From a virus, in the IMG/VR virus record IMGVR_UViG_3300029305_004519, positions 77,541 through 135,466 of that record: a stretch of DNA of 57,926 nt. The stretch is one strand, 5' to 3'. Positions 405-13,042 of this stretch are shown in pieces (within the stretch, counting starts at the first letter, position 1; each line of letters begins with the position of its first letter). The notes below the pieces were generated by a model that did no database searches, was not told where the DNA came from, and worked only from the letters and a program-made list of their open reading frames with translations. Made by a program: the position numbers and the translations under genes.

Positions 405-478
405 GCACTTTTGGGAATTTTCTTTTCGTCAAGTTGCACAAACATTTGGCGAAAAAATATGTGGAATCGTGCAATTTG

Positions 479-1041: not shown

Positions 1042-1049
1042 ATCTTTAA

Positions 1050-1080: not shown

Positions 1081-1083
1081 TAG

Positions 1084-1179: not shown

Positions 1180-1484
1180 TCTTCGGTCTCCTTTTCTTCT
1201 TTGTATTTTATTGTACCTTTTTCGATACAAGTTTGTATGTTTCGAGCCAAGAAATTTTCATTGAACACTCCCGTCATAAAAACCAATCCGCAAAAAATAT
1301 TATACAGAGGAATGGCGCATTGTAAAAATAGCTTAAACCATTGAAACAGGCGCTCACCGAAAGAACGACGAATAGCGGAAATAAGGTTGTGTCTTTTGGC
1401 ATAAAAGCGAACTTCAATAGTCATCAGAAGAACGCTTGCAAGGGCAAACAGAATTGTGCATACATAAATGTTTAAGATAATCAT
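1176..1484 (-). CDS. Small membrane protein (102 aa, multiple hydrophobic helices)
   Basis: Part of ORF 1176..1499. Start MIILNIYV follows a GGAGGA Shine-Dalgarno that lies within repeat copy B. Confidence 0.55.
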   Translation of the reverse strand: MIILNIYVCTILFALASVLLMTIEVRFYAKRHNLISAIRRSFGERLFQWFKLFLQCAIPLYNIFCGLVFMTGVFNENFLARNIQTCIEKGTIKYKEEKETEE

Positions 1485-1488
1485 TTTT

Positions 1489-1743
1489 TTATCCTCCAAT
1501 TATCATTTGAAATAAGTTCCACATGTTCATCACCCAAAGGGCGATATTAAGAACCACAAGATTGATTTTGTGCGCTTCCCAACAGAAAGTGGATGCGATG
1601 CTTGCGCCAATGCACCATAGAATCGTCATATTGGCGCCCATCATGCCGCCTATGACGCATATCGTGTAGATTAAGGCGGTGAGGTCGGTGGCGTCAAACT
1701 CATAGGGGCGGTCAAGGTTGAAATAGTTAGCGATTTTCTTCAT
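1489..1743 (-). CDS. Small membrane protein (84 aa)
   Basis: ORF track entry. Hydrophobic throughout. Overlaps the upstream gene by 17 nt. Confidence 0.55.
   Translation of the reverse strand: MKKIANYFNLDRPYEFDATDLTALIYTICVIGGMMGANMTILWCIGASIASTFCWEAHKINLVVLNIALWVMNMWNLFQMIIGG
1494..1524. repeat. Copy B of the 31-bp direct repeat
   Basis: It encodes the C-terminal 11 aa and stop of the 1489-1743 gene and contains the GGAGGA Shine-Dalgarno of the next gene. Confidence 0.6.
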
Positions 1744-1915
1744 ATTTTACTGCTCCATTCGGATAAGTTACAATGCGGTTTTGTTCTTTGAGTATGCGTT
1801 CTATCCTACAACCGCAACCGCATTCCCAAACCTCTGTTGAATGAGAGGTGGTAAAATGGTCAATCCATAACAATTTGGCTTGTGCGGTGCTACCGCAATT
1901 TGGACATTTAATCAT
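1727..1915 (-). CDS. Zinc-ribbon protein (62 aa; CPNCG...CGCGC)
   Basis: ORF track entry. AAGAGG Shine-Dalgarno. ATGA overlap with the upstream gene. Confidence 0.55.
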   Translation of the reverse strand: MIKCPNCGSTAQAKLLWIDHFTTSHSTEVWECGCGCRIERILKEQNRIVTYPNGAVKYEENR

Positions 1916-2073
1916 TTTACTTTTACCTCTTTGAGTTTATAAACTTGTACTTTTTCCCAATAGCGTTGATAATAATGAACGCAATTTTTCATTGTCTCTT
2001 TGGGGCAATCAATAACAATATTGCGACTGACAGAGCCGTCGATATTGCTGACGATTAAAAGCCATTTAATCAT
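1912..2073 (-). CDS. Hypothetical 53-aa protein (MIKWLLIVSNIDGS...)
   Basis: GGAGGA Shine-Dalgarno. ATGA overlaps at both ends. Below the ORF-track cutoff. Confidence 0.4.
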   Translation of the reverse strand: MIKWLLIVSNIDGSVSRNIVIDCPKETMKNCVHYYQRYWEKVQVYKLKEVKVK

Positions 2074-2327
2074 TTTCTTTTATCCTCCCTATATCCAAAA
2101 TATCTGCGACCTTGGTAGTATTCGATATTGATATGCCCCATTCGTGCAAGATTGCGAAGTGCATTTTCCATGGCACTAATAGTGACATATCCCTCTCCAT
2201 CTTCATCGTGAGGAACGCGAGCATAGATTTCCTCTTTATGAAGATAGTATTCCTTGTTTTCTGCGAGAATGTTCTCTACCCAATAAAACGCATCTCTCGG
2301 TCTTTCAAGATATTCTTTTCTAATCAT
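2070..2327 (-). CDS. Hypothetical protein (85 aa; MIRKEYLERPRD...)
   Basis: Part of ORF 2070..2378, using the internal Met with a GAGAGG Shine-Dalgarno. The longer ORF would overlap the tRNA-like element. Confidence 0.5.
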   Translation of the reverse strand: MIRKEYLERPRDAFYWVENILAENKEYYLHKEEIYARVPHDEDGEGYVTISAMENALRNLARMGHINIEYYQGRRYFGYREDKRK

Positions 2328-2350
2328 GGTTATTACCTCTCTTTTTTTAG

Positions 2351-2418
2351 TGGGCGTGAGGGGAATCGAACCCCTCATTTAACTTTCACTCATAGCAGAG
2401 TGTTTTTCCTGCTCGCCC
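2351..2418 (-). tRNA. tRNA-like element, possibly a tRNA gene; the cloverleaf could not be completed by eye
   Basis: The minus-strand RNA has a canonical T-arm AGGGG-UUCGAUU-CCCCU and a 7-bp acceptor stem GGGCGAG/CACGCCC with one mismatch, plus discriminator A. It is 68 nt long. A CUA triplet is present centrally, but no canonical anticodon stem could be found. It lies immediately downstream of a consensus promoter as the first element of an operon. Confidence 0.45.
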
Positions 2419-2431
2419 TTACTGCTCTTAT

Positions 2432-2460
2432 ATTATACCACATTATGTAGGTTTTGTCAA
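2432..2460 (-). promoter_or_regulatory. Consensus sigma-70-type promoter (TTGACA-17-TATAAT) driving the tRNA-like element and downstream small genes
   Basis: Plus tgtcaa at 2455-2460 and attata at 2432-2437 with an exact 17-bp spacer. Confidence 0.75.
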
Positions 2461-2607
2461 GAGGTTTTCAAAAAATATTTGCAACTATTTTTCGACAAGT
2501 GGCTTCCGTCGTCCCCTACTCGTTGTTTCTGTTCTCAACTCGCGCGTGTAGTTTCTGTTCCAAACTTTCGTCTGTGCCGTTCACACTTGGTTCCTCTTAA
2601 CATTATT
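2461..2607 (-). ncRNA. Candidate small noncoding transcript between tandem promoters
   Basis: About 145 nt lie between two consensus promoters with no ORF or Shine-Dalgarno. It contains an internal direct repeat GAACAGAAAC that occurs twice. Confidence 0.2.
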
Positions 2608-2636
2608 ATTATACCATACAATCGGGAAAATGTCAA
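2608..2636 (-). promoter_or_regulatory. Consensus sigma-70-type promoter (upstream member of a tandem pair)
   Basis: Plus tgtcaa at 2631-2636 and attata at 2608-2613 with a 17-bp spacer. The TTGCACAAA upstream element is at about 2647-2655. Confidence 0.7.
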
Positions 2637-2697
2637 GTGGTAATTTTGCACAAACTTTCAGCGGAAAAATGGCGAGAAGTGTACAGAATGCACAAAT

Positions 2698-2774
2698 CGG
2701 AACGCGGCGGCCGGCCTCGTTCCGCCGGAGTTTTGGGTAAAAAAGAAAAACCCCAGAACTTACGAAAAGCTCTG
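2698..2774 (-). terminator. Tandem hairpins terminating the 2840-3142 transcript
   Basis: Hairpin CCAGAGC-loop-GTTCTGG at about 2752-2774 is followed on the minus strand by UUUUUCUUUUUU. A GC-rich hairpin GGAACG-loop-CGTTCC sits at 2699-2724. Confidence 0.5.
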
Positions 2775-2839
2775 GAAATTTGCTGAGAGGTCTAAGTCGC
2801 GGAAAATCGGACTAGGCGCGAACGCTTTCGTCCGTCAGC

Positions 2840-3142
2840 TTAATGGCTGAAGTGTTTCAACACGTCTTGCGCATCGTACTCATTTTCGTTCTCACTCATA
2901 ATTATAATTTTATTTTCCCATTCAGCAGGAATGCTTAAAATTTTAAGTGTTTCCTTTAAGAATGAAATCATATCCGAACAATCATTTTTTTGATTGTCAG
3001 AAAGAAAGAGAAGGGCGCCCAACTCTTCACAGTAAAGCGCGTGAAGGGGATAGTCTTGCGCCGAGAGGGTTTCCCAATCAAGGGGAGTGAGTGAAGATTC
3101 AAAATGAGTGATTACAAGAGCGTGGCTGAAGTGGTACTTCAT
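2840..3142 (-). CDS. Hypothetical protein (100 aa)
   Basis: ORF track entry. GGAGG Shine-Dalgarno. Its own promoter lies upstream. Confidence 0.55.
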   Translation of the reverse strand: MKYHFSHALVITHFESSLTPLDWETLSAQDYPLHALYCEELGALLFLSDNQKNDCSDMISFLKETLKILSIPAEWENKIIIMSENENEYDAQDVLKHFSH

Positions 3143-3188
3143 ACCGCGTGACCTCCTTGTATCTCTTATTTATTTTTCTTACATATAT

Positions 3189-3217
3189 ATTATATAATAA
3201 ATTTTTTAAAAAGTCAA
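3189..3217 (-). promoter_or_regulatory. Sigma-70-type promoter (TTGACT-17-TATAAT)
   Basis: Plus agtcaa at 3212-3217 and attata at 3189-3194. Confidence 0.65.
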
Positions 3218-3220
3218 AAG

Positions 3221-3240
3221 GCGCAGATTATGCTGCGCCC
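3221..3240 (-). terminator. Rho-independent terminator after the 3244-3447 gene
   Basis: Hairpin GGCGCAG-cataat-CTGCGCC is followed by UUUU on the minus strand. Confidence 0.5.
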
Positions 3241-3243
3241 CGA

Positions 3244-3447
3244 TTATTCATTCCATCGGCAACAGTTGGGGCAATAGTATTGCGTTCCATAACGACCACC
3301 ATTTGGAATTACTTTTTCTTCGCATACTTGACAGTATCCATTATTGAAGCGCTTTTCTGTCAAATGCTCTCCAAGTAAATAGGCGCCATACCAAGATATA
3401 ACTCCTATCACAAGGATTATAACAAGAATAATCCAAGAATGTTTCAT
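3244..3447 (-). CDS. Membrane-anchored zinc-ribbon protein (67 aa; one TM helix, then CQVC...CPNCC)
   Basis: Part of ORF 3244..3531, using the internal Met MKHSWIIL with an AAAGGAAAG Shine-Dalgarno. Confidence 0.5.
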   Translation of the reverse strand: MKHSWIILVIILVIGVISWYGAYLLGEHLTEKRFNNGYCQVCEEKVIPNGGRYGTQYYCPNCCRWNE

Positions 3448-3508
3448 TTTCTTTCCTTTCTGCGCATTTCCAAATTTTTCCAGTGCGCTCTTTTTATGTA
3501 GAGGGAGA

Positions 3509-3928
3509 TTACTCTCCCTCGTCCTCGTCAATCATGCGATCCTCACATTCTTCATTGTCGCATTCATCGCAATTGAAGTCGCACTCATCATCGAGTTCAT
3601 CCTCATCATCATCGAGGAAATAGTTGGGAATGTCGGGGAACTCGCCCGCTTTGTTGGCACGGACATTGTGAACCTTGACCTTATTCGTAAGGTCAGATTT
3701 GGCAAGAGGTTCAAACACATCGATCTTGCGACGGAGAACCGAACCATCGTTGCGGAATACCGATACCTGATAGCCACCCCTGACTTTCAACACATAGGGA
3801 GAAGAAAGTCGGTCTTTTTCGCAGGTATTGAAGCGGATATTTGCATACGCATCTTGCACTGCGGTTTTGAGGTCTGCATAGTCAACTCCCGTACAGATAA
3901 GGCGGTAAACATAGTTTTTCTTTTTCAT
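3509..3928 (-). CDS. Hypothetical protein (139 aa) with an extremely acidic C-terminal tail (DDDEDELDDECDFNCDECDNEECEDRMIDEDEGE)
   Basis: ORF track entry. GAGAGGA Shine-Dalgarno. Candidate DNA-mimic or anti-restriction protein by composition. Confidence 0.6.
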   Translation of the reverse strand: MKKKNYVYRLICTGVDYADLKTAVQDAYANIRFNTCEKDRLSSPYVLKVRGGYQVSVFRNDGSVLRRKIDVFEPLAKSDLTNKVKVHNVRANKAGEFPDIPNYFLDDDEDELDDECDFNCDECDNEECEDRMIDEDEGE

Positions 3929-3964
3929 AATAAAAATCCTCTCTTTTCTTTTGATTACATATAT

Positions 3965-3993
3965 ATTATATCATAAGATATGTACTTTGTCAA
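3965..3993 (-). promoter_or_regulatory. Consensus promoter with a duplicated -35 (TTGACTATTGACA)
   Basis: Plus tgtcaa at 3988-3993 and attata at 3965-3970 with a 17-bp spacer. Confidence 0.7.
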
Positions 3994-4553
3994 TAGTCAA
4001 GTTGCACAAACTTTTGATTATTTATTTGTGCAACTTGACGATGGCGCTTGGCTATTTTGTTAATATAATGCTCTGCATAGTACTTTGCGGCTTGCGCAAT
4101 GTCATTGCAGTTTGCTGATAGTTTTGCTTTACGTATAAGTTCCTCAAACTCATGTTCGGCGCGCCATTCTTGTGCGATAATGTTCTGCTCTTGGGTTACC
4201 TGCTCCCATTTGAGAATCTCAATATCAAATCCATGGTCATTGAAATTATCGACTTTATCTTCAAGGCGGAAGCAATATTGTACCTCTTTGGACATAAGAT
4301 ATGCCCATCCAACAGTGATAGGAATCCATATTAAATCCAACCAAGTGACCGATATTGAGAGGGAAAGTATAAGTCCAACCCCATAAATTACTATCATTGC
4401 TACGAAAAGCCAGCAACTCAAATAATATTTGATACTCATGTTTAATTCTTTTTCTGTCATGGGGCGCTCATGAGTGATTTCTTTATAGTCAAACTCATTG
4501 GTTTTGGTATTGAATGTTGGGTAGTACATTGTGCGCTTTACTGTTTTAGCCAT
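3990..4553 (-). CDS. Membrane protein (187 aa; two central TM helices, C-terminal coiled-coil-like region)
   Basis: ORF track entry. GAGAGGAATA Shine-Dalgarno. Confidence 0.6.
   Translation of the reverse strand: MAKTVKRTMYYPTFNTKTNEFDYKEITHERPMTEKELNMSIKYYLSCWLFVAMIVIYGVGLILSLSISVTWLDLIWIPITVGWAYLMSKEVQYCFRLEDKVDNFNDHGFDIEILKWEQVTQEQNIIAQEWRAEHEFEELIRKAKLSANCNDIAQAAKYYAEHYINKIAKRHRQVAQINNQKFVQLDY
3996..4039. repeat. Perfect 15-bp inverted repeat GTCAAGTTGCACAAA / TTTGTGCAACTTGAC separated by 14 bp
   Basis: Its arms contain the conserved promoter-upstream element TTTGTGCAA in both orientations. It lies inside the 3' end of the 3990-4553 CDS. Confidence 0.5.
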
Positions 4554-4584
4554 TGTATATTCCTCTCTTTTCTTTGGTATCTAT

Positions 4585-4613
4585 ATTATATCATATTTAT
4601 CGGGAAAAGTCAA
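4585..4613 (-). promoter_or_regulatory. Sigma-70-type promoter (TTGACT-17-TATAAT)
   Basis: Plus agtcaa at 4608-4613 and attata at 4585-4590. It shares an extended ~45-bp homology with the 8578-8606 promoter (gtcaatgaataaaYtgtaa). Confidence 0.7.
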
Positions 4614-4668
4614 TGAATAAACTGTAAACTAAATGTAAACAAAAAATGAATGAGAGGTAGGGCTTGCG

Positions 4669-4702
4669 CATAAATCGGCTCGACGCGCCCCACGTCGAGC
4701 CG
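4669..4702 (-). terminator. Rho-independent terminator
   Basis: A 10-bp GC stem CGGCTCGACG-loop-CGTCGAGCCG is followed by AUUUAUG on the minus strand. Confidence 0.6.
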
Positions 4703-4726
4703 CTGAAAAATTGAAGGGCGAGTTTT

Positions 4727-5216
4727 CACTCACCCTTGATAGGTCTGCCGAGAATATCGTGATAATCGTAGTAGCGATACATCGACCACACTTTTTCATC
4801 TTTGACTTTGGAACCATCATACACTACAAGAGTGCCAAGGAAGATGCCACCCAGCCGCTCAATCTCTTCTTTGACAACTGCCACGGTTTTACCGCTGAAA
4901 TAGCTATCATCAATGAAAAGAAATTCGCGCCCTTGATGCGATTTTGGAATGGTTCAAGATTGATTTTAGATGGGTCATGGCGAAAACCACCCGGAACGAG
5001 CAGGTCAATTTCAATACCAAGGTTATGCATAGACAACCCAATCTCACCGCTTGCAATGGTTAGCGCATTATATGCAAGTATATGCGATTTTGCAATGAGG
5101 TCTTGCAGAATTTCATAATCAAACTTGACCGCTTTATCAAGTTCCGAAAAGAAGATTTGACCACCGATGAATTTTTCTAAAAGTTCATTTACAGTTTCAA
5201 AAATTTTATTTTTCAT
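4727..5216 (-). pseudogene. Phosphoribosyltransferase-domain gene disrupted by a -1 frameshift (or a sequencing error) near 4925-4935
   Basis: Frame A (ORF 4824..5216) encodes the N-terminal part. The -1 frame continues with a PRPP-binding motif FLFIDDSYFSGKTVAVVKEEIERLGG...PIKGE and stops at about 4727. The join lies within aatttcttttcattg. Confidence 0.5.
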
Positions 5217-5220
5217 TTCG

Positions 5221-5559
5221 TTATACCCCCAAACTGATTGCTATTGCTTTATCAACTTCCCACATTTGTTTACTATTTGCGATGCCGACAAAGGTTTTTA
5301 GTCTGCGCTTGTCAAGGGTTCGCATTTGCTCACATTCGACCATGCTCTCCTTGCATAAACCGCAAGAGGTATCGAGTAATACCTGTGTTGGCAGACGGAA
5401 TTTATGCGTGCGACTGGTGATGGCCGCCGCAATGACGATAGGCGCGCGTCTGTTGCCTATATCATTAGATACAATCAACACTGGGCGCAAACCGCCTTGC
5501 TCACTGCCGACTACTGGTGAAAGGTCTGCGTAATAAATTTGTCCTCTTTTGATTTCCAT
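5221..5559 (-). CDS. mazF: MazF/PemK/EndoA-family toxin endoribonuclease (112 aa)
   Basis: RGQIYYADLSPVVGSEQGGLRPVLIVSNDIGNRRAPIVIAAAITS...ECEQMRTLDKRRL closely parallels Bacillus EndoA/NdoA and E. coli MazF motifs. AAGGGGG Shine-Dalgarno. Confidence 0.85.
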   Translation of the reverse strand: MEIKRGQIYYADLSPVVGSEQGGLRPVLIVSNDIGNRRAPIVIAAAITSRTHKFRLPTQVLLDTSCGLCKESMVECEQMRTLDKRRLKTFVGIANSKQMWEVDKAIAISLGV

Positions 5560-5572
5560 ATGTACCCCCTTG

Positions 5573-5594
5573 GGTAGAGCCTTACGGCTCTACC
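5573..5594 (-). other. Perfect 9-bp intercistronic hairpin (GGTAGAGCC-ttac-GGCTCTACC) with the upstream gene's stop codon in its loop
   Basis: It lies between the 69-aa gene and the mazF ribosome-binding site. No U-run follows, so it is probably not a terminator. Confidence 0.5.
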
Positions 5595-5791
5595 TCTATA
5601 ACCTCAATGCTTTGTTTTACTACGAACTCCCCGCAAATTTCGCCCGTAAAATTGTTGACGATAATAACATTGGTTTCTTTGTTGATTGCCATGCCATTAG
5701 CAAAATACTTTGCATGGTTAAGGTCATCAAAATCCGCAATGTGCTTGCATTCGCAATACACTCCATAGTCGAGAATGTCAAATCTAATCAT
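5582..5791 (-). CDS. Hypothetical 69-aa protein upstream of mazF (candidate non-canonical antitoxin)
   Basis: ORF track entry. AAAGGAAAGG Shine-Dalgarno. It has no recognisable MazE/AbrB or RHH signature. Confidence 0.5.
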   Translation of the reverse strand: MIRFDILDYGVYCECKHIADFDDLNHAKYFANGMAINKETNVIIVNNFTGEICGEFVVKQSIEVIEVEP

Positions 5792-5827
5792 AAGTTTATA
5801 CCTTTCCTTTCTTTTGTTTACATATAT

Positions 5828-5856
5828 ATTATATCATATTGATTGCCGTTTGTCAA
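5828..5856 (-). promoter_or_regulatory. Consensus promoter (TTGACA-17-TATAAT) with the upstream TTGACTATTGACA / TTTGTGCAA element
   Basis: Plus tgtcaa at 5851-5856 and attata at 5828-5833. Confidence 0.7.
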
Positions 5857-5888
5857 TAGTCAATTTGCACAAAGTTTTTGGGTGGGAC

Positions 5889-6200
5889 TTATGCACAATA
5901 CACAAGCCCCATATCGCGCCAGCGGAGAACAGAGATTTGATTACAAGCGCGCCCAACTTCAAGGGCTTCATGCTTTGTTGCTACTCTATGCGATAAGTCG
6001 ATATAGTAGATGCCAGCGCTGAACCAAATACCGCAGTTACCGCCATATGCCTTGACCGCGTTAATGGCTTCGCGGGGGTCGGTGGTTTCAATGCCCTCTG
6101 TTGCGACTTGATACCCAGACTTGTAAATGATGCGCTTACCGCCTTTAAGGGTCATTCCGTCATTATCTTTCAGATTGCGAATGGAGCGAATGTTGATCAT
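5889..6200 (-). CDS. Hypothetical protein (103 aa)
   Basis: ORF track entry. AAAGGAAAGG Shine-Dalgarno. Confidence 0.55.
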   Translation of the reverse strand: MINIRSIRNLKDNDGMTLKGGKRIIYKSGYQVATEGIETTDPREAINAVKAYGGNCGIWFSAGIYYIDLSHRVATKHEALEVGRACNQISVLRWRDMGLVYCA

Positions 6201-6233
6201 AATATGTATTTTCCTTTCCTTTATTGTATCTAT

Positions 6234-6262
6234 ATTATATCATAAAAGCGGGAAAATGTCAA
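6234..6262 (-). promoter_or_regulatory. Consensus promoter
   Basis: Plus tgtcaa at 6257-6262 and attata at 6234-6239 with a 17-bp spacer. Confidence 0.7.
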
Positions 6263-6323
6263 TAGTCAAATGTAACAAAGTTTTGGAGAAAAAAAGATGG
6301 TGATTTGTACAGATTGCACAAAA

Positions 6324-6380
6324 CGGCTCGCGGCGGAGGATCGCGAGCCGGGCAAAGAAAAAAGGTGCCTGTTGGCACCT
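6324..6380 (-). terminator. Tandem rho-independent terminators after the 6380-6565 gene
   Basis: Hairpin CGGCTCGCG-loop-CGCGAGCCG is followed by UUUUGUG. Hairpin GGTGCC-aaca-GGCACC is followed by UUUUUUCUUUG on the minus strand. Confidence 0.65.
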
Positions 6381-6565
6381 TAATCAATGATGAGGATATT
6401 CTCTTGCGGGAGCCCGAGGGAGATTGCATACCAAAGGGCATCGTCTACACTCTCGCAATCTTTTAGTTTAATTATTTTGAATTCATTTCTGACACGACAT
6501 TCATAGTTAGTTTTGTCAGTAATGCACCATCCATAGAAAAAATCTTTCCATAAAATATATTGCAT
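6380..6565 (-). CDS. Hypothetical protein (61 aa)
   Basis: ORF track entry. AGGGGGTAG Shine-Dalgarno. Confidence 0.5.
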   Translation of the reverse strand: MQYILWKDFFYGWCITDKTNYECRVRNEFKIIKLKDCESVDDALWYAISLGLPQENILIID

Positions 6566-6579
6566 TTTTCTACCCCCTA

Positions 6580-6816
6580 TCAGTAAGTGTCATAGCCGAG
6601 GCAATCGCCTTCGGCATCGGTAATAAGAGCAACGAAACAAGCGTATTCAAAGTTTTCATCAGCGGTTGCTTGGCAACGAGTGATGAAATCTTCCATTTCT
6701 TCGCCTTCTTCCTTTTTCCATTCTACAAGGAAAATTTCACCGCTTTCCCTGTCATAGAATTTGGCGTCAAGCCATTCGCCAACTTTTGTCTGTTCCCAAA
6801 TCTGTTCGTTTGTCAT
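6580..6816 (-). CDS. Highly acidic small protein (78 aa; 22 D/E residues against 4 K/R)
   Basis: ORF track entry. AGAGAGG Shine-Dalgarno. Candidate DNA mimic by composition only. Confidence 0.55.
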   Translation of the reverse strand: MTNEQIWEQTKVGEWLDAKFYDRESGEIFLVEWKKEEGEEMEDFITRCQATADENFEYACFVALITDAEGDCLGYDTY

Positions 6817-6860
6817 TTGTGTTTACCTCTCTTTTATGTATTTGTCCTTTTGACACTCTT

Positions 6861-6889
6861 ATTATATCATAAATAAATGTATTTGTCAA
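6861..6889 (-). promoter_or_regulatory. Consensus promoter
   Basis: Plus tgtcaa at 6884-6889 and attata at 6861-6866. Confidence 0.7.
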
Positions 6890-6922
6890 GTATTTTTGCA
6901 AAGTTTTTTTGAAATATCGAAC

Positions 6923-7043
6923 AAGTTTACAAAATGTTCATAATTTAACAGCAGGTCTTAAACTACTGCTTTTACGGGTAACAAAATAGAAATGAATGGT
7001 TCATAATTTTGCGTATAAAAGTTTACAAACTGTTCACAAAATG
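6923..7043. repeat. Three iteron/operator-like repeats (GTTTACAAAATGTTCATAATTT, ATGGTTCATAATTTTG, GTTTACAAACTGTTCACAAAATG) upstream of the 6861-6889 promoter
   Basis: Direct reading gives a shared core TTTACAAnnTGTTCAyAA. Related copies lie at 8655-8715 upstream of another promoter. Confidence 0.5.
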
Positions 7044-7045
7044 CA

Positions 7046-7081
7046 AAAAGCGCGCCGCCCCGGGTGTCAGCGGCGCGGCGA
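7046..7081 (-). terminator. GC-rich terminator hairpin after the 7100-7384 gene
   Basis: GCGCGCCGC-loop-GCGGCGCGG is followed by CUUUUUGCAUUUU on the minus strand. Confidence 0.5.
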
Positions 7082-7099
7082 TGGAAAGAGGACTGCTTG

Positions 7100-7384
7100 T
7101 TAGCAGTCCCCTGTGTAGCAACCCATGTAAGGGTCAAAGCCAGTTTCATCGACGTCAGGCTCATAGTCCTCATCTTCCTCGTCCCAATCCTCATTGTAGT
7201 AGAGGCTTTCGGTGCCGTGGTGGTAGATGATTTGCGCCATAGGGGTAGCCTCGTCTTTGGTGAGGTGGTCATCTGCGACAAGGTCAACCAACCGCGCGAT
7301 TGCAATGGTATGGGGGTCTTCAAGCCCGAACTCCGAGCAGGCGAGGTTGTGGCAGTTGATGAGCGAAAGTTTGGTGTAATCCAT
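7100..7384 (-). CDS. Hypothetical protein (94 aa) with an acidic C-terminus; paralog of the 8116-8316 protein
   Basis: ORF track entry. AAAGGAGAA Shine-Dalgarno. Shares the motif ACxxxGLEDxHTIAIA with the 8116-8316 product. Confidence 0.55.
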   Translation of the reverse strand: MDYTKLSLINCHNLACSEFGLEDPHTIAIARLVDLVADDHLTKDEATPMAQIIYHHGTESLYYNEDWDEEDEDYEPDVDETGFDPYMGCYTGDC

Positions 7385-7387
7385 GGT

Positions 7388-7645
7388 AGTTCTCCTTTAT
7401 GTAGATTGAATTGGCTCTGCTCCGTCCATCCGAGGCGGTCGGCTCCTATGAGCGGACTGTGCCATCCTCGGCATCTTTGCCCTACTTGGTTTATATAGCG
7501 ATGGGCGTCTAACACGGTCTTTGCTGACCTCTGACTGCGCTCTGCGGAGAGCGGGCTCTTTACACCGCTTGCAAGGGTACTCGTTTCTTCAAGTTGTGGC
7601 TAAACTCGGTTGGTAGCGCTCCCAACGGCTTTCCCCTTGACACCT
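7388..7645 (-). ncRNA. Long (~250 nt) GC-rich untranslated leader or candidate structured RNA between the promoter and the 7100-7384 gene
   Basis: No ribosome-binding-site-preceded ORF. Several internal complementary segments such as CCGAGG/CCTCGG. The track ORFs here (6958..7515, 7064..7498) lack Shine-Dalgarno sites and look like compositional artefacts. Confidence 0.25.
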
Positions 7646-7647
7646 AT

Positions 7648-7676
7648 ATTATATCACACTTTCGGGCAAAAGTCAA
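7648..7676 (-). promoter_or_regulatory. Sigma-70-type promoter (TTGACT-17-TATAAT)
   Basis: Plus agtcaa at 7671-7676 and attata at 7648-7653. Confidence 0.7.
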
Positions 7677-7736
7677 TAGGTAATATTGCACAAACTTTTG
7701 GCGCCAAATTTGTGCATCTTGCACAAGAAGGCAAAA

Positions 7737-7800
7737 TCGTCGCGCCACGACCGCTGGCGCGACGGCGAAGGGAAAGAGGGCTTTTCAGCCCTCTCTTTGT
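7737..7800 (-). terminator. Tandem terminator hairpins after the 7785-8081 gene
   Basis: AGAGGGC-loop-GCCCTCT at about 7776-7797 and GTCGCGCCA-loop-TGGCGCGAC at about 7741-7767 are followed by GAUUUUGCC. Confidence 0.55.
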
Positions 7801-8081
7801 TTCAATGCGCGATAAGCATCGCGCTCTTCTTTGGTATCAAACCATGTCTTTTCGCCGTACATCCAAATCATATCAACGGAGTCGACACAGTGCACAAGAG
7901 CGAAGCCTTTATGCGCTTGTTGATGTGTGGCTCTAATGGCATATGGGCTACCATTCAAGCGTGCGGTTGAAACGCTCTCTCTGGTAGTTGCAATTTGATA
8001 TTCTTCAATAAAAGCAGGCGTTGCAAGAAAGGGACGTTTTACGCCAAGGACTTTGTAAAGCTCTCTAATAGAATGTTTCAT
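7785..8081 (-). CDS. Hypothetical protein (98 aa)
   Basis: ORF track entry. AGGAGGA Shine-Dalgarno. Confidence 0.55.
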   Translation of the reverse strand: MKHSIRELYKVLGVKRPFLATPAFIEEYQIATTRESVSTARLNGSPYAIRATHQQAHKGFALVHCVDSVDMIWMYGEKTWFDTKEERDAYRALKQREG

Positions 8082-8115
8082 GATATATCCTCCTGTTCGA
8101 TGGGGTAGAGGACTA

Positions 8116-8316
8116 TTAGTCCTCTACCATATGGTATGCGCCGATTGCTTGCATATAGATCGCACGACAGACCATTGCCGCATCCCAACATTTGGCGCCG
8201 CCGGCTTCATGCATTTCTACAATTCCGGCTATTGCAATGGTGTGCTTATCCTCAAGCCCAAGGTCAGTGCAGGCTTTATCCAGCCACTGCCGAGGAGTCA
8301 TGAAATAGTTGCTCAT
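8116..8316 (-). CDS. Hypothetical protein (66 aa); paralog of the 7100-7384 protein
   Basis: ORF track entry. GGAGGTG Shine-Dalgarno. Carries the GLEDKHTIAIA motif. Confidence 0.55.
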   Translation of the reverse strand: MSNYFMTPRQWLDKACTDLGLEDKHTIAIAGIVEMHEAGGAKCWDAAMVCRAIYMQAIGAYHMVED

Positions 8317-8328
8317 ATGCCCACCTCC

Positions 8329-8520
8329 TTATGCGCCGAGGGCTCTAAAACGGAGCCCTTCATATGTGCCGTGATAAAAGCGCCACTTGCCTGCGCCGTA
8401 GCCATAACGAACATTCCAACGCGTATTGCGTGTAACGTGACGGCGGAGCGCATTGCCCGTCATAGAGCCAAGGACTTCGCCTGTCTCAAGATTATAAGCC
8501 CAGTGTTTGCAGTTAGTCAT
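8329..8520 (-). CDS. Basic small protein (63 aa)
   Basis: ORF track entry. GGAGGT Shine-Dalgarno. Confidence 0.5.
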   Translation of the reverse strand: MTNCKHWAYNLETGEVLGSMTGNALRRHVTRNTRWNVRYGYGAGKWRFYHGTYEGLRFRALGA

Positions 8521-8577
8521 AATAGACCTCCAAGTATGTATTCAGAGGGGGAGCGTCCTCCGCCCTTCTGTGTCTAT

Positions 8578-8606
8578 ATTATATCACATAAAGGCGCAAA
8601 AGTCAA
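8578..8606 (-). promoter_or_regulatory. Sigma-70-type promoter (TTGACT-17-TATAAT)
   Basis: Plus agtcaa at 8601-8606 and attata at 8578-8583. Confidence 0.7.
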
Positions 8607-8654
8607 TGAATAAATTGTAACTTATATATGAATATTTTATGAACTTTGCGGGAC

Positions 8655-8715
8655 GGGAAGTGTTCACATTTGGTTCAAACAACTGAAACAAAAAATTTAC
8701 AATTTGTTAACAAAT
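8655..8715. repeat. Operator-like repeats related to the 6923-7043 set (GTGTTCACATTTGGTTCAAACAA, TTTACAATTTGTTAACAAATC)
   Basis: Same TTTACAA..TGTT.A.AA core, found upstream of a different early promoter. Confidence 0.4.
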
Positions 8716-8721
8716 CTTAAA

Positions 8722-8800
8722 AGCGGCGCGTCGCGGGGGATGACGCGCCGGCCGGCACTTCAAGAAGGCGCAACCCTATGACCGGGCGCGCCTTCTTCGC
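8722..8800 (-). terminator. GC-rich terminator hairpin(s) after the 8815-8964 gene
   Basis: GGCGCGTC-loop-GACGCGCC is followed by UUUUAAGAUUU. A second hairpin GAAGGCGC-loop-GCGCCTTC follows. Confidence 0.5.
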
Positions 8801-8814
8801 TGATATGGGATGCC

Positions 8815-8964
8815 TTATACTATACACACATAGGTTCCGGCTCTTGTCCCTTCAGCCTGATACACTTCGGTAATATCAATATTACCGCTATTGCTGTCAA
8901 ATACCCGGATGGGCATATTCTCGTCATATTGGTTAAGCAATTCTTTCAACTCTTTTATAGTCAT
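8815..8964 (-). CDS. Hypothetical 49-aa protein
   Basis: Part of ORF 8815..9006, using the internal Met MTIKEL with a GGAGGGAG Shine-Dalgarno. Confidence 0.4.
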   Translation of the reverse strand: MTIKELKELLNQYDENMPIRVFDSNSGNIDITEVYQAEGTRAGTYVCIV

Positions 8965-8981
8965 GATATAACTCCCTCCTA

Positions 8982-9146
8982 TTAATCGCGGTCTTTCTTC
9001 TTCCAAATCCCTATGAGGATTGAAATCTCATTGCAAATAGTTACAAATACCGCAACCAATGCAATCATAAGTGGGGTAACATTAAACATGCCACTGCTAT
9101 ACATTAAAAGCAGAATAGTCAACCCTATCAAATACATTCTTTCCAT
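8982..9146 (-). CDS. Hypothetical 54-aa membrane peptide (two hydrophobic segments)
   Basis: AAGAGG Shine-Dalgarno. Its start overlaps the upstream stop (TAATG). Below the track cutoff. Confidence 0.35.
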   Translation of the reverse strand: MERMYLIGLTILLLMYSSGMFNVTPLMIALVAVFVTICNEISILIGIWKKKDRD

Positions 9147-9418
9147 TATGCCCAACCTCTTTCTTTCTTAATTTGCTCATATCGAGCTTTATTCTCTGCC
9201 TCAATGCGCGCCTTATCATAGACGCGCGCCTTGATTTGAGTATATCCATATTTACGCATGTCGCGCACTGTCATATGACGTTTTGCTAACATCTTCGTGA
9301 CAGCCTTTTGTTGATATGCGACTTTATTCGCCATATAGTCTACCCATGACGCAACTTCTATCAATTCGGAAAGCGGTCTATAACCGCTTTCCGATATAAT
9401 GGTGACTTGAATCTGCAT
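9146..9418 (-). CDS. Hypothetical protein (90 aa)
   Basis: ORF track 9146..9421 trimmed to its ATG. AGAGGTAAT Shine-Dalgarno. TGATG overlap with the Lar gene. Confidence 0.55.
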   Translation of the reverse strand: MQIQVTIISESGYRPLSELIEVASWVDYMANKVAYQQKAVTKMLAKRHMTVRDMRKYGYTQIKARVYDKARIEAENKARYEQIKKERGWA

Positions 9419-9630
9419 CACATTACCTCTATACTTTCATTGTTCCATGCTTCAATGGCGAGGTCTACGGTATAGCCGGTTTTGCCTGCCGCTTCACAAG
9501 TGGGGCATTGCATAAAATAACCCTCATCCCAACCGGCAAACTCCCGGTTGATTCTATGCAATTGAGTTTTACAGTAGGGGCAGGGGCGGATATAATCCGC
9601 CTGCCCTTTTTCGATTGCTTTAATTTTCAT
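9418..9630 (-). CDS. lar: Lar-family restriction alleviation protein (70 aa zinc ribbon)
   Basis: CPYCKT...CPTCEAAG...AIEAWN matches the Lar family pattern CPxC..C..C with AIEAWN. Confidence 0.7.
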   Translation of the reverse strand: MKIKAIEKGQADYIRPCPYCKTQLHRINREFAGWDEGYFMQCPTCEAAGKTGYTVDLAIEAWNNESIEVM

Positions 9631-9824
9631 TTATTTAATTCTCCTTTCGCTAATGCCAAAGTATAGGCGTGATAATCATCGCAAAATTTTTCAATCGAAA
9701 GAATTTCGCAATCCTGTTCGATAATATGTGCCAATGCGGTATGCATGCCGCCGCCCGATACAGTATAACTATCACATGGAGTGGTAATTCGATAACCTGC
9801 TTTTTCTTCATATCTTGTAAACAT
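9627..9824 (-). CDS. Hypothetical protein (65 aa)
   Basis: ORF track entry. GAAAGGAAGG Shine-Dalgarno. Confidence 0.5.
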   Translation of the reverse strand: MFTRYEEKAGYRITTPCDSYTVSGGGMHTALAHIIEQDCEILSIEKFCDDYHAYTLALAKGELNK

Positions 9825-9846
9825 ATAAATACCTTCCTTTCTATGT

Positions 9847-9867
9847 GGGGTAGGTTTAACCTACCCC
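9847..9867 (-). other. Perfect 10-bp hairpin (GGGGTAGGTT-t-AACCTACCCC) with the stop codon of the 9856-10107 gene in its loop, just upstream of the next ribosome-binding site
   Basis: Same arrangement as the hairpin at 5573-5594. Confidence 0.4.
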
Positions 9868-10107
9868 GTTTATTTTCATGGCGTCAAGCATCTCGCCCGC
9901 GCCCTGTTCGACTTCTTCCGCCAATGCGGTGAAAAAATCATCTTCCGATTCTTCCACCACGGGAGCGGTAACAAGCTCCACATGAGAGCTAACGAAAAAC
10001 AATTCGTTTACCTCTTGAATTGTTTCACCATTTACTAAAATGGTTTTGTGGGGGTCGCATTTTTGCAATTCTTGAATAAGTTGAGAAACAGACATTGACA
10101 TGATTTT
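9856..10107 (-). CDS. Hypothetical acidic protein (83 aa)
   Basis: ORF track 9856..10119 trimmed to Met MSMSVSQ with an AAAGGAA Shine-Dalgarno. Confidence 0.5.
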   Translation of the reverse strand, partial: KIMSMSVSQLIQELQKCDPHKTILVNGETIQEVNELFFVSSHVELVTAPVVEESEDDFFTALAEEVEQGAGEMLDAMKINGVG

Positions 10108-10138
10108 GATTCCTTTCATATGTAAAAAATTTTTTTGA

Positions 10139-10240
10139 TTAATTGAACAGACAACCCAACAGATGAACGACTAAACCGAACAGACAAACACCAATAAATG
10201 CGCCAATAGATAAGAGTACTAAAAGCAATTCAAGTGGCAT
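10139..10240 (-). CDS. Hypothetical 33-aa hydrophobic peptide (MPLELLLVLLSIGAFIGVCLFGLVVHLLGCLFN)
   Basis: GGAAGTG Shine-Dalgarno. It is the first gene after the leftward divergent promoter. Confidence 0.3.
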   Translation of the reverse strand: MPLELLLVLLSIGAFIGVCLFGLVVHLLGCLFN

Positions 10241-10293
10241 TTTTTTCACTTCCTTTCAATTTGATTTTTTGCCGTGTTTACCACCGCAAGACT

Positions 10294-10322
10294 ATTTTAC
10301 CACAAAGCCAAGCATTTGTCAA
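10294..10322 (-). promoter_or_regulatory. Leftward promoter of the divergent control region (TTGACA-17-TAAAAT with an extended TG)
   Basis: Plus tgtcaa at 10317-10322 and atttta at 10294-10299. The TTGCACAAA element is inverted-repeated at about 10336 and about 10373. Confidence 0.6.
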
Positions 10323-10547
10323 CACTTTTTTCATTGTCATTTTGCACAAATTTTTTGGGGGTTTGAGAATTTTTTTTGTGCAAACTACACACAATTATAA
10401 GAGGTATTTTTGGGATTTTGAAATTTCTATTTTCTTCCAAAGCCTTTCCTACGGCAATTCACTCCTAGAAAATTCATTTCATTTCAAAAGACGAACAGGA
10501 TTTTTATAGCTCTCTCTCCAAACCAATAATCCAACGAAAAATTATCA

Positions 10548-10557
10548 CACGCATATG
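10548..10557. promoter_or_regulatory. Perfect palindrome CGCATATGCG about 25 bp upstream of the rightward promoter's -35; candidate operator
   Basis: Read directly from the sequence. Confidence 0.3.
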
Positions 10558-10579
10558 CGATCCCTAACCTCGACCGTTC

Positions 10580-10608
10580 TTGACAACTTTAAAATTTTTT
10601 GGTAAAAT
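10580..10608 (+). promoter_or_regulatory. Rightward promoter (TTGACA-17-TAAAAT, extended -10 TGgTAAAAT) driving the recoded gene block
   Basis: TTGACA at 10580-10585 and TAAAAT at 10603-10608. AAAGGAG Shine-Dalgarno and ATG at 10646 follow. Confidence 0.65.
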
Positions 10609-10645
10609 CCTTATAAAGATAGATGAAAGGAGTCTTGCTAAATAA

Positions 10646-11761
10646 ATGTTAGAAGAAGCAGAATTAATAGAAGACAAAATGCAAGAAGCATAGATTGAGC
10701 CTCCTTCTCCAATTAAATTAGACTATACTCTTAAGACATGCGACGAGCGCGCGGCCTTGGTATAGCGCATCATTGAGTCAACGCCGGGCGCCCAACTATC
10801 AAATCGATATCTTGAAATTCTCGGTGATTACATCATGGGCGCCATTACCAAAGAAGAGCGCAAAGAAAAATTATATCTAACAGACAACCGCCTTGTAACT
10901 ATTAATAAGCGCGAAACCTCATATGAAGGCATGGTTGAAAAATTTGAAAATGGTGAAGATGGTATCTACAATCTCATCACCAATGACAAAAATATTCTTT
11001 TTTAGCCTAAAGTTAGCATAACAGATCAAGATATTGAAGAAGTACCAGGTCTAAAAGAGTTGCGCGCGGCCATGAAAGAAATTGAGGCAGAGGGAAAAGC
11101 GGCAACGGGCAGGCGCAAATACCTATTGAAAAAACAATTAATTGAAATGCGCCGCGATCAATACGTGCTTAAAAACGCCTATAAGCCACCGATGGCGCTT
11201 ACCCCTTCAGCGCGCGCCATTAATAAAATAGATTTATCTGAGCGGAGATACATTGATGAGAATGGAGACCCACAAAGCACCGGTTTAGTTTCATTCTTTA
11301 ATCCCAAGCATATCTCTGCGCTTTTGTGCAACTATAATGCGTTAAAGATTGAAACCAAAGGGCGCTATTGGGACGATTTCTTTTATTTAATGGAGGCGTT
11401 CGATGAATTAATAAAATAGGCGCTGGCGCCTTACCCTATGTATCAAGAGCTAGTCCGTATGAAGATAGACGGGGCGCCCAACAGTGAAATTCAATAGGCG
11501 CTCGCCGAACACTACAATACCTAGCACTCGGCGCAATATATCTCATCCTTATGGCGAAATAAAATTCCAAAAATCATTGCGGAATAGGCGCAAAACGATT
11601 ATTTAATATGGCATTACCAAAATGAAGAAAAGGGACAATGGAAAAAATGTTCCTGCTGTCATCAATATAAACTGGCAAATGCGCGCTTCTTTTCCCGTAA
11701 TAAGACTTCAAAAGATGGTTGGTATAGTATATGTAAAGCCTGTAGAAATAAAAAAATTTAA
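10646..11761 (+). CDS. Hypothetical protein (371 codons including about 6 in-frame TAG) with a C-terminal Cys-rich zinc ribbon (CSCCH...CKAC)
   Basis: A single frame runs from ATG 10646 to TAA 11759-11761, interrupted only by TAG. ORF-track pieces such as 11060..11419 are in the same frame. Confidence 0.6.
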
Positions 11762-11825
11762 TCTCATTTTTATAAAATATGATTAATTAAATTTTTAGTT
11801 TACTACGAAAGGAGAATTAAAACCT

Positions 11826-13037
11826 ATGGCAAAATATCATTGTGATAAATGTAATAAAGAATTAGAAGAAGTTAACTTCTATAAATATCGAGATGGCAGT
11901 TATGTAGAACTGTGCAAAAAATGTTTAACTATGCACGTGGATGTATTTGATCCTTCTACCTTTACCTGGCTATTAGAAAAATTAGATGTACCTTATATTC
12001 CTCAAGAATGGAATACAGTTATTGAAAAAAAGATGGCGCGCAAGCCCGATGCGCCGATCTCTCACTCAGCTGTTTTCGGCTCCTATATATCAAAAACTAA
12101 ATTAAAGCAATGGAAAGATTTCTATTGGAAGGATAATGATCTTATTTAGGAAAGATTTTTTGCGCAAAGCGCCCAGCTGGATGAGGAAAAGGCTGAGCTT
12201 GACGCGCTGTATCAAGAACAATACGAAGCAGGCTAGATTTCTGAAGCACAATATAAAACTTTAACATCGCCAAAGGCGCGCAATGACCAAATGATGAATA
12301 TGCTTGCGGCGCAAGGTCCTTATCTTGGAGAAAATAACGCTTATGACGAGAATTTCTTTATCGACGAGTCAGAGCTACCAGATCCCGCAAATTCGCTTAC
12401 ACAAGAAGATAAAATTTATCTTGCTATGAAATGGGGTAAATTATACAAACCAAATGAATGGGTTGAGCTTGAAAAAGATTATACAAAAATGAAATAGTCC
12501 TTTGATATTCAAGATGCAGACTCTGAAAATACTCTGATTTTATTATGTAAGACAAATCTTAAAGCTAATCAGGCGATTGACTGCGGTGATATTGAAGGAT
12601 TCCAAAAGTTATCTAAAGTTTCAGAATCATTGCGTAAGTCTGCTAAGTTCACCGCACAATAGAACAAAGATGAAAAAGGTGATTACGTAGACTCTATTGG
12701 TCAGCTTATTGCAATATGCGAAAAAGAGGGCTTTATTCCTCGCTTTGCAACTGATATTCCTCAAGATAAAGTAGATATGACTTTGCGTGATATGAACGAA
12801 TATGTGCGCAAACTTGTAACTCAGGATTTAGGATTTGGACAATAGATCGAAGATTCGTTGAAGAAGATTATGATTCAAAATGAAATGAATAAAGAGGCGG
12901 AAGCTCGCTAGGAAGAAGAGGGCGATGATTATGATCCTTACGCACCTACTGAATTAGAAGATGAAGATATCGTGGATTATTATGATAATATTATGAATTA
13001 GAAATTATATGATAGTAATATCTATGACAAGGGGTGA
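11826..13037 (+). CDS. Hypothetical protein (403 codons, TAG-containing) with an N-terminal zinc ribbon (CDKCNK...CKKC) and an acidic C-terminus; possible packaging-associated or small-terminase-like protein
   Basis: Frame 0 from 11826 to TGA 13035-13037. Track ORFs 11826..12149 and 12291..12497 are in frame. It sits immediately upstream of terL. Confidence 0.5.
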
Positions 13038-13042
13038 GGCTT

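Follow-up and report, generated by a model that had tools for sequence, protein, structure and literature searches.

Phased direct repeats upstream of early promoters in an uncultivated phage: a probable family of operator arrays

Introduction

Why should the same short repeats stand, more than once, between a terminator-like hairpin and a strong promoter in the early region of a phage? This question is raised by a 57,926-nucleotide (nt) stretch of the IMG/VR virus record IMGVR_UViG_3300029305_004519 (positions 77,541 to 135,466 of that record), which we call the window and whose own numbering is used throughout. An earlier note on this DNA, referred to here as the original prediction, reported copies of a roughly 20-bp unit near 6923-7043 and related units at 8655-8715. 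It placed each set between a terminator and the next early promoter, and it offered two interpretations, a repressor or activator site or a replication iteron.

In this work we argue that the repeats are operator arrays, i.e. predicted sites of a sequence-specific DNA-binding protein that would control a subset of the early promoters. We regard this as probable, with appreciable room for doubt. Sites of transcription control, not a replication origin, are the most likely identity of the repeats. Judging from sequence comparisons, the unit is conserved across many uncultivated Firmicute-type phages, where it lies at fixed helical distances upstream of strong predicted early promoters.

Results

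The repeat unit

The early arm of the window runs on the minus strand from position 1 to about 10.3 kb. It holds roughly 30 small open reading frames (ORFs) in the standard code and about 15 near-perfect sigma-70-type promoters (TTGACA-17-TGnTATAAT). Here and below, promoters and terminators are consensus predictions. The two promoters next to the repeats, P6889 and P8606, lie on the minus strand, therefore the repeats are to be read on that strand, which is the coding strand of the early arm. Read in this way, the unit of about 20 bp consists of two head-to-tail half-sites 11 bp apart, with the 19-bp consensus TTRTGAACAAWTTGTAAAC.

All of the strings quoted in the original prediction were found where it had placed them (Table 1), and the second set indeed lies upstream of the promoter at 8578-8606. 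The first set had been described as 35-180 bp upstream of P6889. It is upstream, but the half-sites start 42, 53, 116, 138 and 149 nt from the -35 hexamer, and none lies as far away as 180. At P8606 the starts are 62, 73, 95 and 106 nt upstream of the -35. The gaps between half-site starts at these two promoters are all near multiples of 10.6. The proposed position of each set, between a terminator and the next promoter, also agrees with our map, as GC-rich hairpins followed by T-runs form the upstream edge of both. The minus-strand reading, the 11-bp half-site structure, an inverted unit at a third promoter (P4613) and a more numerous class of element, TTTGTGCAA, had been overlooked.

Repeats of this kind are enriched over shuffled sequence within the window. 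Its own 18-mer, with up to three mismatches, occurs four times against a shuffle mean of 1.06, and one of 100 shuffles reaches four. A 19-mer derived across phages, TTRTGAACANTTTGTAAAC, occurs three times at the same tolerance, always inside the two flagged regions (shuffle mean 0.37; none of 100 shuffles reaches three). Loose half-site pairs exactly 11 bp apart number seven, against 1.14 +/- 1.10 in 200 shuffles, none of which reaches seven, and six of the seven sit upstream of P4613, P6889 and P8606. Single loose half-sites, of which there are 383, are enriched neither in the window nor upstream of its promoters. The enrichment signal resides in the paired, phased arrangement.

Recurrence in other phages

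Scanning IMG/VR for exact matches to TTGTGAACANNTTGTAAA and TTATGAACNNTTTGTAAAC brought up many contigs, and a large share of these have the unit immediately before promoters that approach the consensus but show no other relationship in sequence. Pooling all fetched loci gave 162 unique sites with at most two mismatches, chance matches included; 76 of these have a near-consensus promoter within 120 nt, compared with 13.9% of random positions in the same loci.

The distance from the end of the unit to the start of the -35 hexamer is strongly quantized. It is 14-15 nt in 24 cases, 22-26 nt in 10 and 33-36 nt in five, and further gaps follow at 45, 55-57, 64-66, 75, 85-88 and 96-98 nt. The best period is 10.3-10.4 bp, with a vector strength of 0.80, or 0.70 when the 14/15 class is left out (Rayleigh p about 1e-6). 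Because the steps are of one helical turn, all copies lie on one and the same face of the helix with respect to the -35 hexamer. Inverted units are present too, at 4, 18-19 and 28-30 nt from the -35, offsets unlike the forward ones. The presence of both orientations, each with its own offsets, is in keeping with a binding site and not with a directional core-promoter element.

The consensus of 34 promoter-linked sites is again TTRTGAACAAWTTGTAAAC. Of the 19 positions, ten never vary and another two do so in one site only, a count to be read with the fact that nine of these twelve, G14 among them, are specified bases of the search pattern that collected the sites. The near-fixed G/C positions are G14, found in 33/34 sites, and G5 and C8, kept in 27/34. 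Array size ranges from one unit to seven tandem 11-bp half-sites (seven in loci L094/L110 and L174), and L091 and L092 each carry at least five unit-bearing promoters. The genes behind these promoters are diverse, which indicates that the element is generic and not gene-specific.

Outside this set, a blastn search with unit plus promoter matched cultured phages of Staphylococcus and Bacillus in the A-tract-plus-promoter part only, never in the unit. A metagenome scan returned no further copies of the two long cassettes of the window, and a literature search for the motif strings returned primers only. Four bacterial-looking metagenome contigs (L168, L169, L171 and L173) carry four tandem 11-bp units (TTGTGAAC, TTGTAAAC, TTGTCAAC or TTATCAAC, TTATGAAC) that precede a TAnnTTTG-type, Bacteroidota-like promoter. 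In L171, the one contig of the four for which ORFs were listed, the array (11706-11746) is downstream of a gene for an SbcC-like ATPase and upstream of an ECF-type sigma gene. Such arrays exist outside these phages too.

Conservation among syntenic relatives

Three relatives with the gene order of the early arm in common (L032, L034 and L036) were found by means of the 94-aa protein encoded at 7100-7384, to which their homologues are 66-69% (L032, L034) and 38% (L036) identical. Gene A, the first gene behind P6889, retrieved nothing when used as a query for related loci. The conservation of the repeats in relatives, on which the original prediction also depends, is evident here. In L032 and L036, identity is 91-92% for the 156-nt cassette at 6890-7045 and 97% for the promoter, whereas it is only 68-69% for the coding DNA of gene A. 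The second cassette is more diverged, with a mean column identity of 72%. Conservation is concentrated in the first unit, in the half-sites TGnTTGAA and TATGAA/TTCATA and in the CCCGTCCC core; these blocks coincide with the units in a footprint-like manner.

The cassettes are also the places at which these loci differ. The gene homologous to 7100-7384 is preceded by a cassette of the TTTGTGCAA type in the window and L032 but by one with the flagged repeats in L034 and L036, and small genes are inserted or missing between cassettes among the four loci. The features of the cassettes are collected in Table 1. Their order is a double hairpin terminator, the distal unit or units, a spacer, the proximal unit, an A-tract and the promoter.

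Table 1. Features of the repeat-bearing cassettes and class A elements of the window.
Feature	Position	Strand	Remarks
Quoted string TTTACAAAATGTTCATAA	6926-6943		From the original prediction
Quoted string TTTACAAACTGTTCACAA	7022-7039		From the original prediction
Quoted partial copy GGTTCATAA	6998-7006		From the original prediction
Quoted string GTGTTCACATTTGGTTCAAAC	8660-8680		From the original prediction
Quoted string TTTACAATTTGTTAACAA	8696-8713		From the original prediction
Hairpin 1	7087-7112	-	Overlaps stop codon of upstream gene 7100-7384, then TCTTTCC; first of two tandem terminator-like hairpins; inverted repeat I21
Hairpin 2	7045-7079 (about)	-	GC-rich stem GCCGCGCCGC...GCGGCGCGC, then TTTTT; terminator-like (terminator scan, site 7061-7047); upstream edge of cassette
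Distal unit TTGTGAACAGTTTGTAAAC	7021-7039	-	Half-sites 149 and 138 nt upstream of -35; no mismatch to cross-phage consensus; invariant in L032, L036
Lone half-site TTATGAAC	6999-7006	-	Starts 116 nt upstream of -35; the partial copy of the original prediction; invariant in L032, L036
Short palindrome TTACCCGTAA	6972-6981		Between units; invariant in three-way alignment
Imperfect inverted repeat (AGCAG...CTGCT)	6948-6971 (about)		Holds most cassette substitutions between relatives (alignment)
Proximal unit TTATGAACATTTTGTAAAC	6925-6943	-	End 35 nt before -35 hexamer, third step of the 14/24/35 ladder
A-tract spacer CAAAAAAACTTTGCAAAAATAC	6890-6924	-	Adjoins -35; contains degenerate TTTGTGCAA remnant; conserved in L032, L036
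Predicted early promoter P6889	6861-6889	-	TTGACA-17-TATAAT with TG, 12/12 match; 97% identical in L032, L036
Gene A, 78 aa	6580-6816	-	No family match; first gene behind P6889; homologues follow equivalent cassette in L032, L036
GC-rich hairpin GGCGCGTC...GACGCGCC	8718-8751 (about)	-	Then CTTTT; terminator-like; upstream edge of second cassette; repeat D17; missed by consensus terminator scan
Unit TTGTTAACAAATTGTAAAT	8695-8713	-	Half-sites 106 and 95 nt upstream of -35; fits strict WalR TGTWAH-N5-TGTWAH; block near-invariant in L034, L036
Weaker pair TTTGAAC-CAAA-TGTGAA (TTTGAACCAAATGTGAA)	8663-8679	-	Half-sites 73 and 62 nt upstream of -35; partly conserved in L034, L036
Invariant core CCCGTCCC(G)	8649-8657	-	Flanked by inverted TGAAC...GTTCA half-sites
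Opposite-strand half-sites TATGAAT and TATGAAC	8627-8644	+	11 bp apart; 21 and 32 nt from -35
Predicted early promoter P8606	8578-8606	-	TTGACT-17-TATAAT with TG, 11/12 match
Third site TGTAAACTAAATGTAAA, inverted orientation	4623-4639	+	9 nt upstream of -35 of P4613 (4585-4613, minus strand)
Class A element at P7676	7686-7726	-	Proximal TTTGTGCAA 7686-7694; distal palindrome TTGTGCA-AGA-TGCACAA 7710-7726
Intergenic TTTGTGCAA copies, first 10.4 kb (n = 10)	434-442, 476-484, 2646-2654, 4002-4010, 4025-4033, 5865-5873, 6314-6322, 7686-7694, 10342-10350, 10375-10383
Remaining TTTGTGCAA copies	11323 and 29792		The copy at 11323 is inside the sigma-factor gene

Other upstream elements

The flagged repeats, which we call class B, are a minority. 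Most early-arm promoters carry instead the class A element, TTTGTGCAA. It is present in 12 exact copies against 1.26 expected, and none of 100 shuffles reaches 12. At five promoters (P2636, P3993, P5856, P6262 and P7676) a proximal copy starts 17-18 nt before the -35, and copies lie further upstream at three promoters of the window, P404 and P10322 among them. A distal inverted or palindromic copy (TTGTGCA-N3-TGCACAA) is found 14 or 24 nt further upstream.

Class A, too, follows a helical ladder in other phages. Among 592 unique consensus promoters from 71 loci, TTTGTGCA starts 17 nt (n = 52) or 18 nt (n = 14) before the -35, with minor peaks at 28, 38 and 60, and the inverted form TGCACAAA is found at 39 and 49-50 nt. 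Exact copies of the 22-base composite TTTGTGCAANTTGACTATTGACA were found in 20 stretches from IMG/VR and 11 from metagenome-bin contigs. The bins are mostly labelled Clostridia, Acutalibacteraceae or Eubacteriales; the exceptions are Paludibacteraceae, Candidatus Enterocola and Gastranaerophilaceae. A clostridial host for the phage of the window is hinted at solely by such bin labels.

A further class consists of an A-tract, TTTCAAAAACCYC, abutting the -35, with 27 cases at -12. P283 carries this motif and matches the scan pattern TTTCAAAAACC; the A-tract of P2460, TTTTTTGAAAACCTC, is related to it but receives no score in the motif scan. The early arm thus appears to be split into regulatory classes, with at least three classes of upstream element.

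Two tandem pairs of perfect promoters (255-404 and 2432-2636, minus strand), 121 and 176 nt apart, have no ORF between them, and in each pair an A-tract precedes the -35 of the downstream promoter. These pairs could produce short non-coding transcripts or act as double promoters.

Genomic setting

Nine promoters of the window score 12/12, and eight of these are on the minus strand of the early arm. One or two GC-rich hairpins with T-runs stand before most early-arm promoters, which repeats the double-hairpin layout of Table 1. Beyond 10.6 kb the coding strand is the plus strand, and the genes there are coherent only when TAG is read through: between 10646 and 57926 readthrough increases the coding density from 0.47 to 1.0, with ORFs as long as 2,901 and 1,763 codons. 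A search of the window with ARAGORN gave no suppressor tRNA.

The first gene of the late arm (10646-11761, plus strand) matches a phage sigma-factor family (PHROG 5767, 2e-46) and has seven in-frame TAG codons. Its promoter is sigma-70-like (10580-10608) and diverges from the early promoter P10322. The large terminase comes after it and is 44-46% identical to terminases of 120-142 kb siphoviruses of Enterococcus, Geobacillus and Alicyclobacillus. Its identity to the YonF-type terminases of the SPbeta group is about 33-35%, a distant relationship. A megablast of 1-20000 against cultured phages gave no match. Two late intergenic regions (42312-42323 and 52493-52504, plus strand) hold an identical TAATCGTATTAT in the context TTAA..TAATCGTATTAT. 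It may represent a late promoter used by the phage sigma factor, and its count alone is not significant (three matches with at most one mismatch against 0.9 expected).

Several early genes and non-coding stretches are worth describing in their own right. A solitary MazF/PemK-type toxin gene (5221-5559, minus strand; Pfam PF02452, 4.7e-31), with no recognisable MazE gene adjacent, is conserved in L032, L036 and L024. A small zinc-ribbon protein (9418-9630, minus strand) resembles the Lar restriction-alleviation family (PF14354, 1.5e-5), at a level that does not reach the curated cut-off. The minus-strand genes at 7100-7384 and 8116-8316 are paralogous, with a common motif C.E/DLGLED.HTIAIA and a direct repeat (D3) that is 74% identical over 47 nt. 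Between P7676 and the start of the first of these lies a GC-rich leader of about 260 nt (7385-7647, minus strand) with no ORF or Rfam match.

Downstream of P2460 is a tRNA-like element (2335-2428, minus strand) with a perfect T-arm, GAGGGGTTCGATTCCCCTC, and an acceptor-like 5-bp pairing, GGGCG/CGCCC; by eye there is a possible internal hairpin with CTA in a 6-nt loop. The minimum free energy fold has z = -2.5 but pairs the stretch of the CTA hairpin differently. ARAGORN gave no plausible tRNA even when relaxed (one implausible call), and Rfam matched only a 17-nt tmRNA fragment. The element is of interest given the TAG recoding.

Discussion

The results suggest how the repeats may work. The binding protein could oligomerise head to tail on one face of the DNA, in the manner of winged-helix response regulators, and from there it may touch RNA polymerase, probably at the alpha C-terminal domain. 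Since the promoters already are perfect consensus sequences, timed repression or gating of one class of early transcription unit would be likelier than simple activation. For example, the polymerase might be held at the promoter, by analogy with protein p4 of phi29 at the promoter A2c.

Some results count against an operator function. Promoters with a perfect consensus have no obvious need of an activator, and all promoter and terminator calls are consensus predictions. Scans of about 20 early proteins against Pfam and PHROG identified nothing beyond the MazF/PemK protein and the Lar-like zinc ribbon and revealed no binder. When 3,898 ORFs from 80 related loci were clustered, no DNA-binding family was common to all unit-bearing loci. 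Furthermore, the whole 156-nt cassette is conserved, not the units alone, and recent exchange or gene conversion could account for part of this conservation. Finally, many of the 162 pooled sites came from pattern scans, some are chance matches or near-duplicates and they are not fully independent, which makes the p-values approximate.

The binder could be a host regulator of the OmpR family or a phage-encoded, possibly virion-delivered, protein. A host factor is suggested by the 19-mer itself, which is near-uniform over contigs from <5 kb to 137 kb with little else in common, and by the geometry of the unit, which is that of Firmicute OmpR-family regulators. For a phage factor there is the precedent of SPBRE and MrpR in SPbeta (PMC10516654). 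Within the early arm, an 85-aa protein (2070-2327) has a winged-helix look by eye, with no family match, and its family is outside the 40 most widely shared clusters. An AbrB/MazE-like protein is found in nine of the 80 related loci and is absent from the window. No autoregulated regulator stands out, since the genes behind the units are so diverse.

A bolder version of the host reading is that the unit is bound by a response regulator of the WalR/PhoP/ResD group that is conserved in hosts and essential to them. It would couple or gate the first minutes of an infection to host growth or cell-wall state, with class A and the A-tract class as separately timed sub-programmes. We consider this version improbable. 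It would cover a broad set of uncultivated Firmicute-infecting phages, some of them with TAG-recoded late genes, which would have put the site at fixed helical distances before their early promoters.

One alternative to operator arrays is that the cassettes are mainly recombination modules. Exchange or gene conversion would keep them alike while small early genes are shuffled at the crossover points, and the repeats would be passengers. The contrast between a cassette at 91-92% identity and an adjacent gene at 68-69% favours such a process. So do the differences in cassette class and small-gene content at equivalent positions among syntenic relatives, and the promoter-early stem-loop (PeSL) of T4-type phages provides a precedent (PMC2839356, PMC4122927). 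Yet recombination gives no account of the 19-bp unit alone recurring in unrelated contigs by unrelated promoters, and it leaves the 10.4-bp ladder to the -35 unexplained. It is compatible with operators and does not replace them, and as the main explanation we think it unlikely. We are a little more doubtful still of a factor-independent promoter element, i.e. AT-rich, phased UP-like or curved DNA that aids RNA polymerase through its alpha subunits with no dedicated regulator. The commonest position of the unit, about -68 to -50 from the start site, does overlap the UP zone. The region is AT-rich, with A-tracts beside the -35, and the cultured Staphylococcus and Bacillus phages have the A-tract-plus-promoter part as well. 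What such DNA would not explain are the near-fixed G/C positions, units that reach about -150 and beyond, and two orientations with different offsets; moreover, the cultured-phage matches never include the unit.

The iteron interpretation of the original prediction, in which a phage initiator protein would bind a replication origin, fares considerably worse and seems very improbable to us. Tandem direct repeats at helical periodicity, built of 11-bp half-sites and up to seven in a row in L094/L110 and L174, are indeed what iterons look like. However, the units are phased to the -35 hexamer and are spread over three separate promoters of the window, over many in single contigs of relatives and over dozens elsewhere, not confined to one locus. 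No replication gene was found among the annotated proteins, for which most of the roughly 30 left-arm ORFs and six right-arm proteins were scanned (of these six, only the sigma factor and the large terminase were identified). The cumulative GC skew turns at about 10-11 kb and not at 7-8.7 kb. The other half of the same interpretation, a repressor or activator site, is favoured by the link to promoters, the ladder of about 10.4 bp and a conservation far above that of the neighbouring gene. A chance origin of the repeats in AT-rich DNA, or a place for them in some structured RNA, is extremely unlikely. Loose single half-sites are common and show no enrichment upstream of promoters, which speaks for chance, but the paired and phased sites exceed every shuffle and the unit is conserved across contigs. 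As for RNA, folding of the cassette is no better than that of shuffles (z = -1.15 and +0.08 on the two strands), and Rfam on 1-12000, with E up to 1, returned only sub-threshold noise.

The early arm can be described as a regulatory grammar in which every insulated unit combines a predicted double terminator, a phased element from one of at least three classes and a perfect promoter of the sigma-70 type. The motifs can serve as markers by which early regions and the limits of transcription units are recognised in contigs of metagenomic phages. Together with a spacing rule of 14.5 + 10.4n, the 19-mer is a concrete and testable bait for the regulator. Should the binder prove to be a host regulator, lytic phages would be reading host physiology; should it prove to be a phage protein, it would probably be the early shut-off switch of this lineage.

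Comparison with known systems

The Rex operator has the consensus TTGTGAA-N4-TTCACAA. The left half fits the unit, but the right half, TTGTAAA, makes a direct and not an inverted repeat, and Rex was rejected. LexA (GAAC-N4-GTTC), BirA, parS, the DnaA, Spo0A and CodY boxes, sigma-54 and ECF -35 motifs were rejected by eye.

The closest likeness in geometry is with the WalR/VicR/PhoP/ResD group. The PhoP box of B. subtilis, TT(A/T/C)ACA-N5-TT(A/T/C)ACA, is the reverse complement of a WalR-like form, and the ResD box is TTTGTGAAT. All units of the phage element are likewise two direct-repeat hexamers with a 5-nt spacer and an 11-bp period. The longer tandem arrays and the positions upstream of the -35 also resemble the boxes of the OmpR/PhoB family. 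The WalR consensus is TGTWAH-N5-TGTWAH, direct-repeat hexamers with a 5-nt spacer (PMC4168254, PMC9210968), and the second half-site of the unit, TGTAAA, fits it. The relaxed C. difficile pattern TGTNDH-N5-BKBWRN accommodates TGTGAA-N5-TGTAAA (PMC9210968). The first half-site, T(A/G)TGAA, differs, with G at position 4 of the hexamer in 27/34 sites where WalR needs A or T. In the window the strict WalR pattern matches only 4623-4639 and 8696-8712, two matches against 0.65 expected, a number reached by 13 of 100 shuffles and so not in excess of chance. The units at 6925-6943 and 7021-7039 were rejected as strict WalR sites, with A at position 2 in the first and G at position 4 in both. Furthermore, the phage consensus is longer and stricter, at 19 bp, and the likeness is one of sequence geometry.

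Repression from upstream has a model in phi29, where p4 binds upstream of the early promoters A2b and A2c, contacts the alpha subunit and represses by holding the polymerase. This shows how a consensus promoter could be silenced from an upstream, phase-dependent site. The sites of p4 form inverted repeats in one regulatory region, whereas the units here are head to tail in dispersed cassettes, and no p4 homologue was found here.

In architecture the cassettes resemble the PeSL of T4-type phages, terminator plus early-promoter cassettes between small variable early genes (PMC2839356, PMC4122927). In both systems a stem-loop terminator is followed by an early promoter, and the arrangement is repeated between small early genes. 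As with PeSL, the cassettes are better conserved than the flanking genes and mark points of indels or exchange among the window, L032, L034 and L036. A PeSL is a stem-loop and a promoter, while here phased, high-information upstream elements of at least three classes are added. Host type and phage lineage differ; the likeness is one of architecture.

SPBRE of SPbeta is a short repeat that was found in silico at about ten intergenic promoter regions and, 24 years later, turned out to be the operator of the phage repressor MrpR (YopR) (PMC10516654). The likeness lies in a short repeated element at the promoter regions of a large Firmicute siphovirus, and the terminase of the window is distantly akin to the YonF type. 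Direct kinship of the two elements was rejected, as the SPBRE sequence derived from seven SPbeta promoters, about AAAAAATATGTATAT, has no resemblance to the unit. SPBRE stands alone immediately before the start codon, where it seems to extend over the -10 region, and does not form an 11-bp tandem array with helical spacing. SPbeta, moreover, is a temperate phage, and the window has no sign of lysogeny. SPbeta itself (L176, NC_001884) has annotated palindromes at 27857-27872 and 32395-32412, TTGTAATGCATTACAA and GTAAACCATATGGTTTAC, with unit-like TTGTAA/GTAAAC half-sites in inverted arrangement, a resemblance that may be coincidence. The element of the window would belong to a known kind, that of dispersed operator families at phage early promoters.

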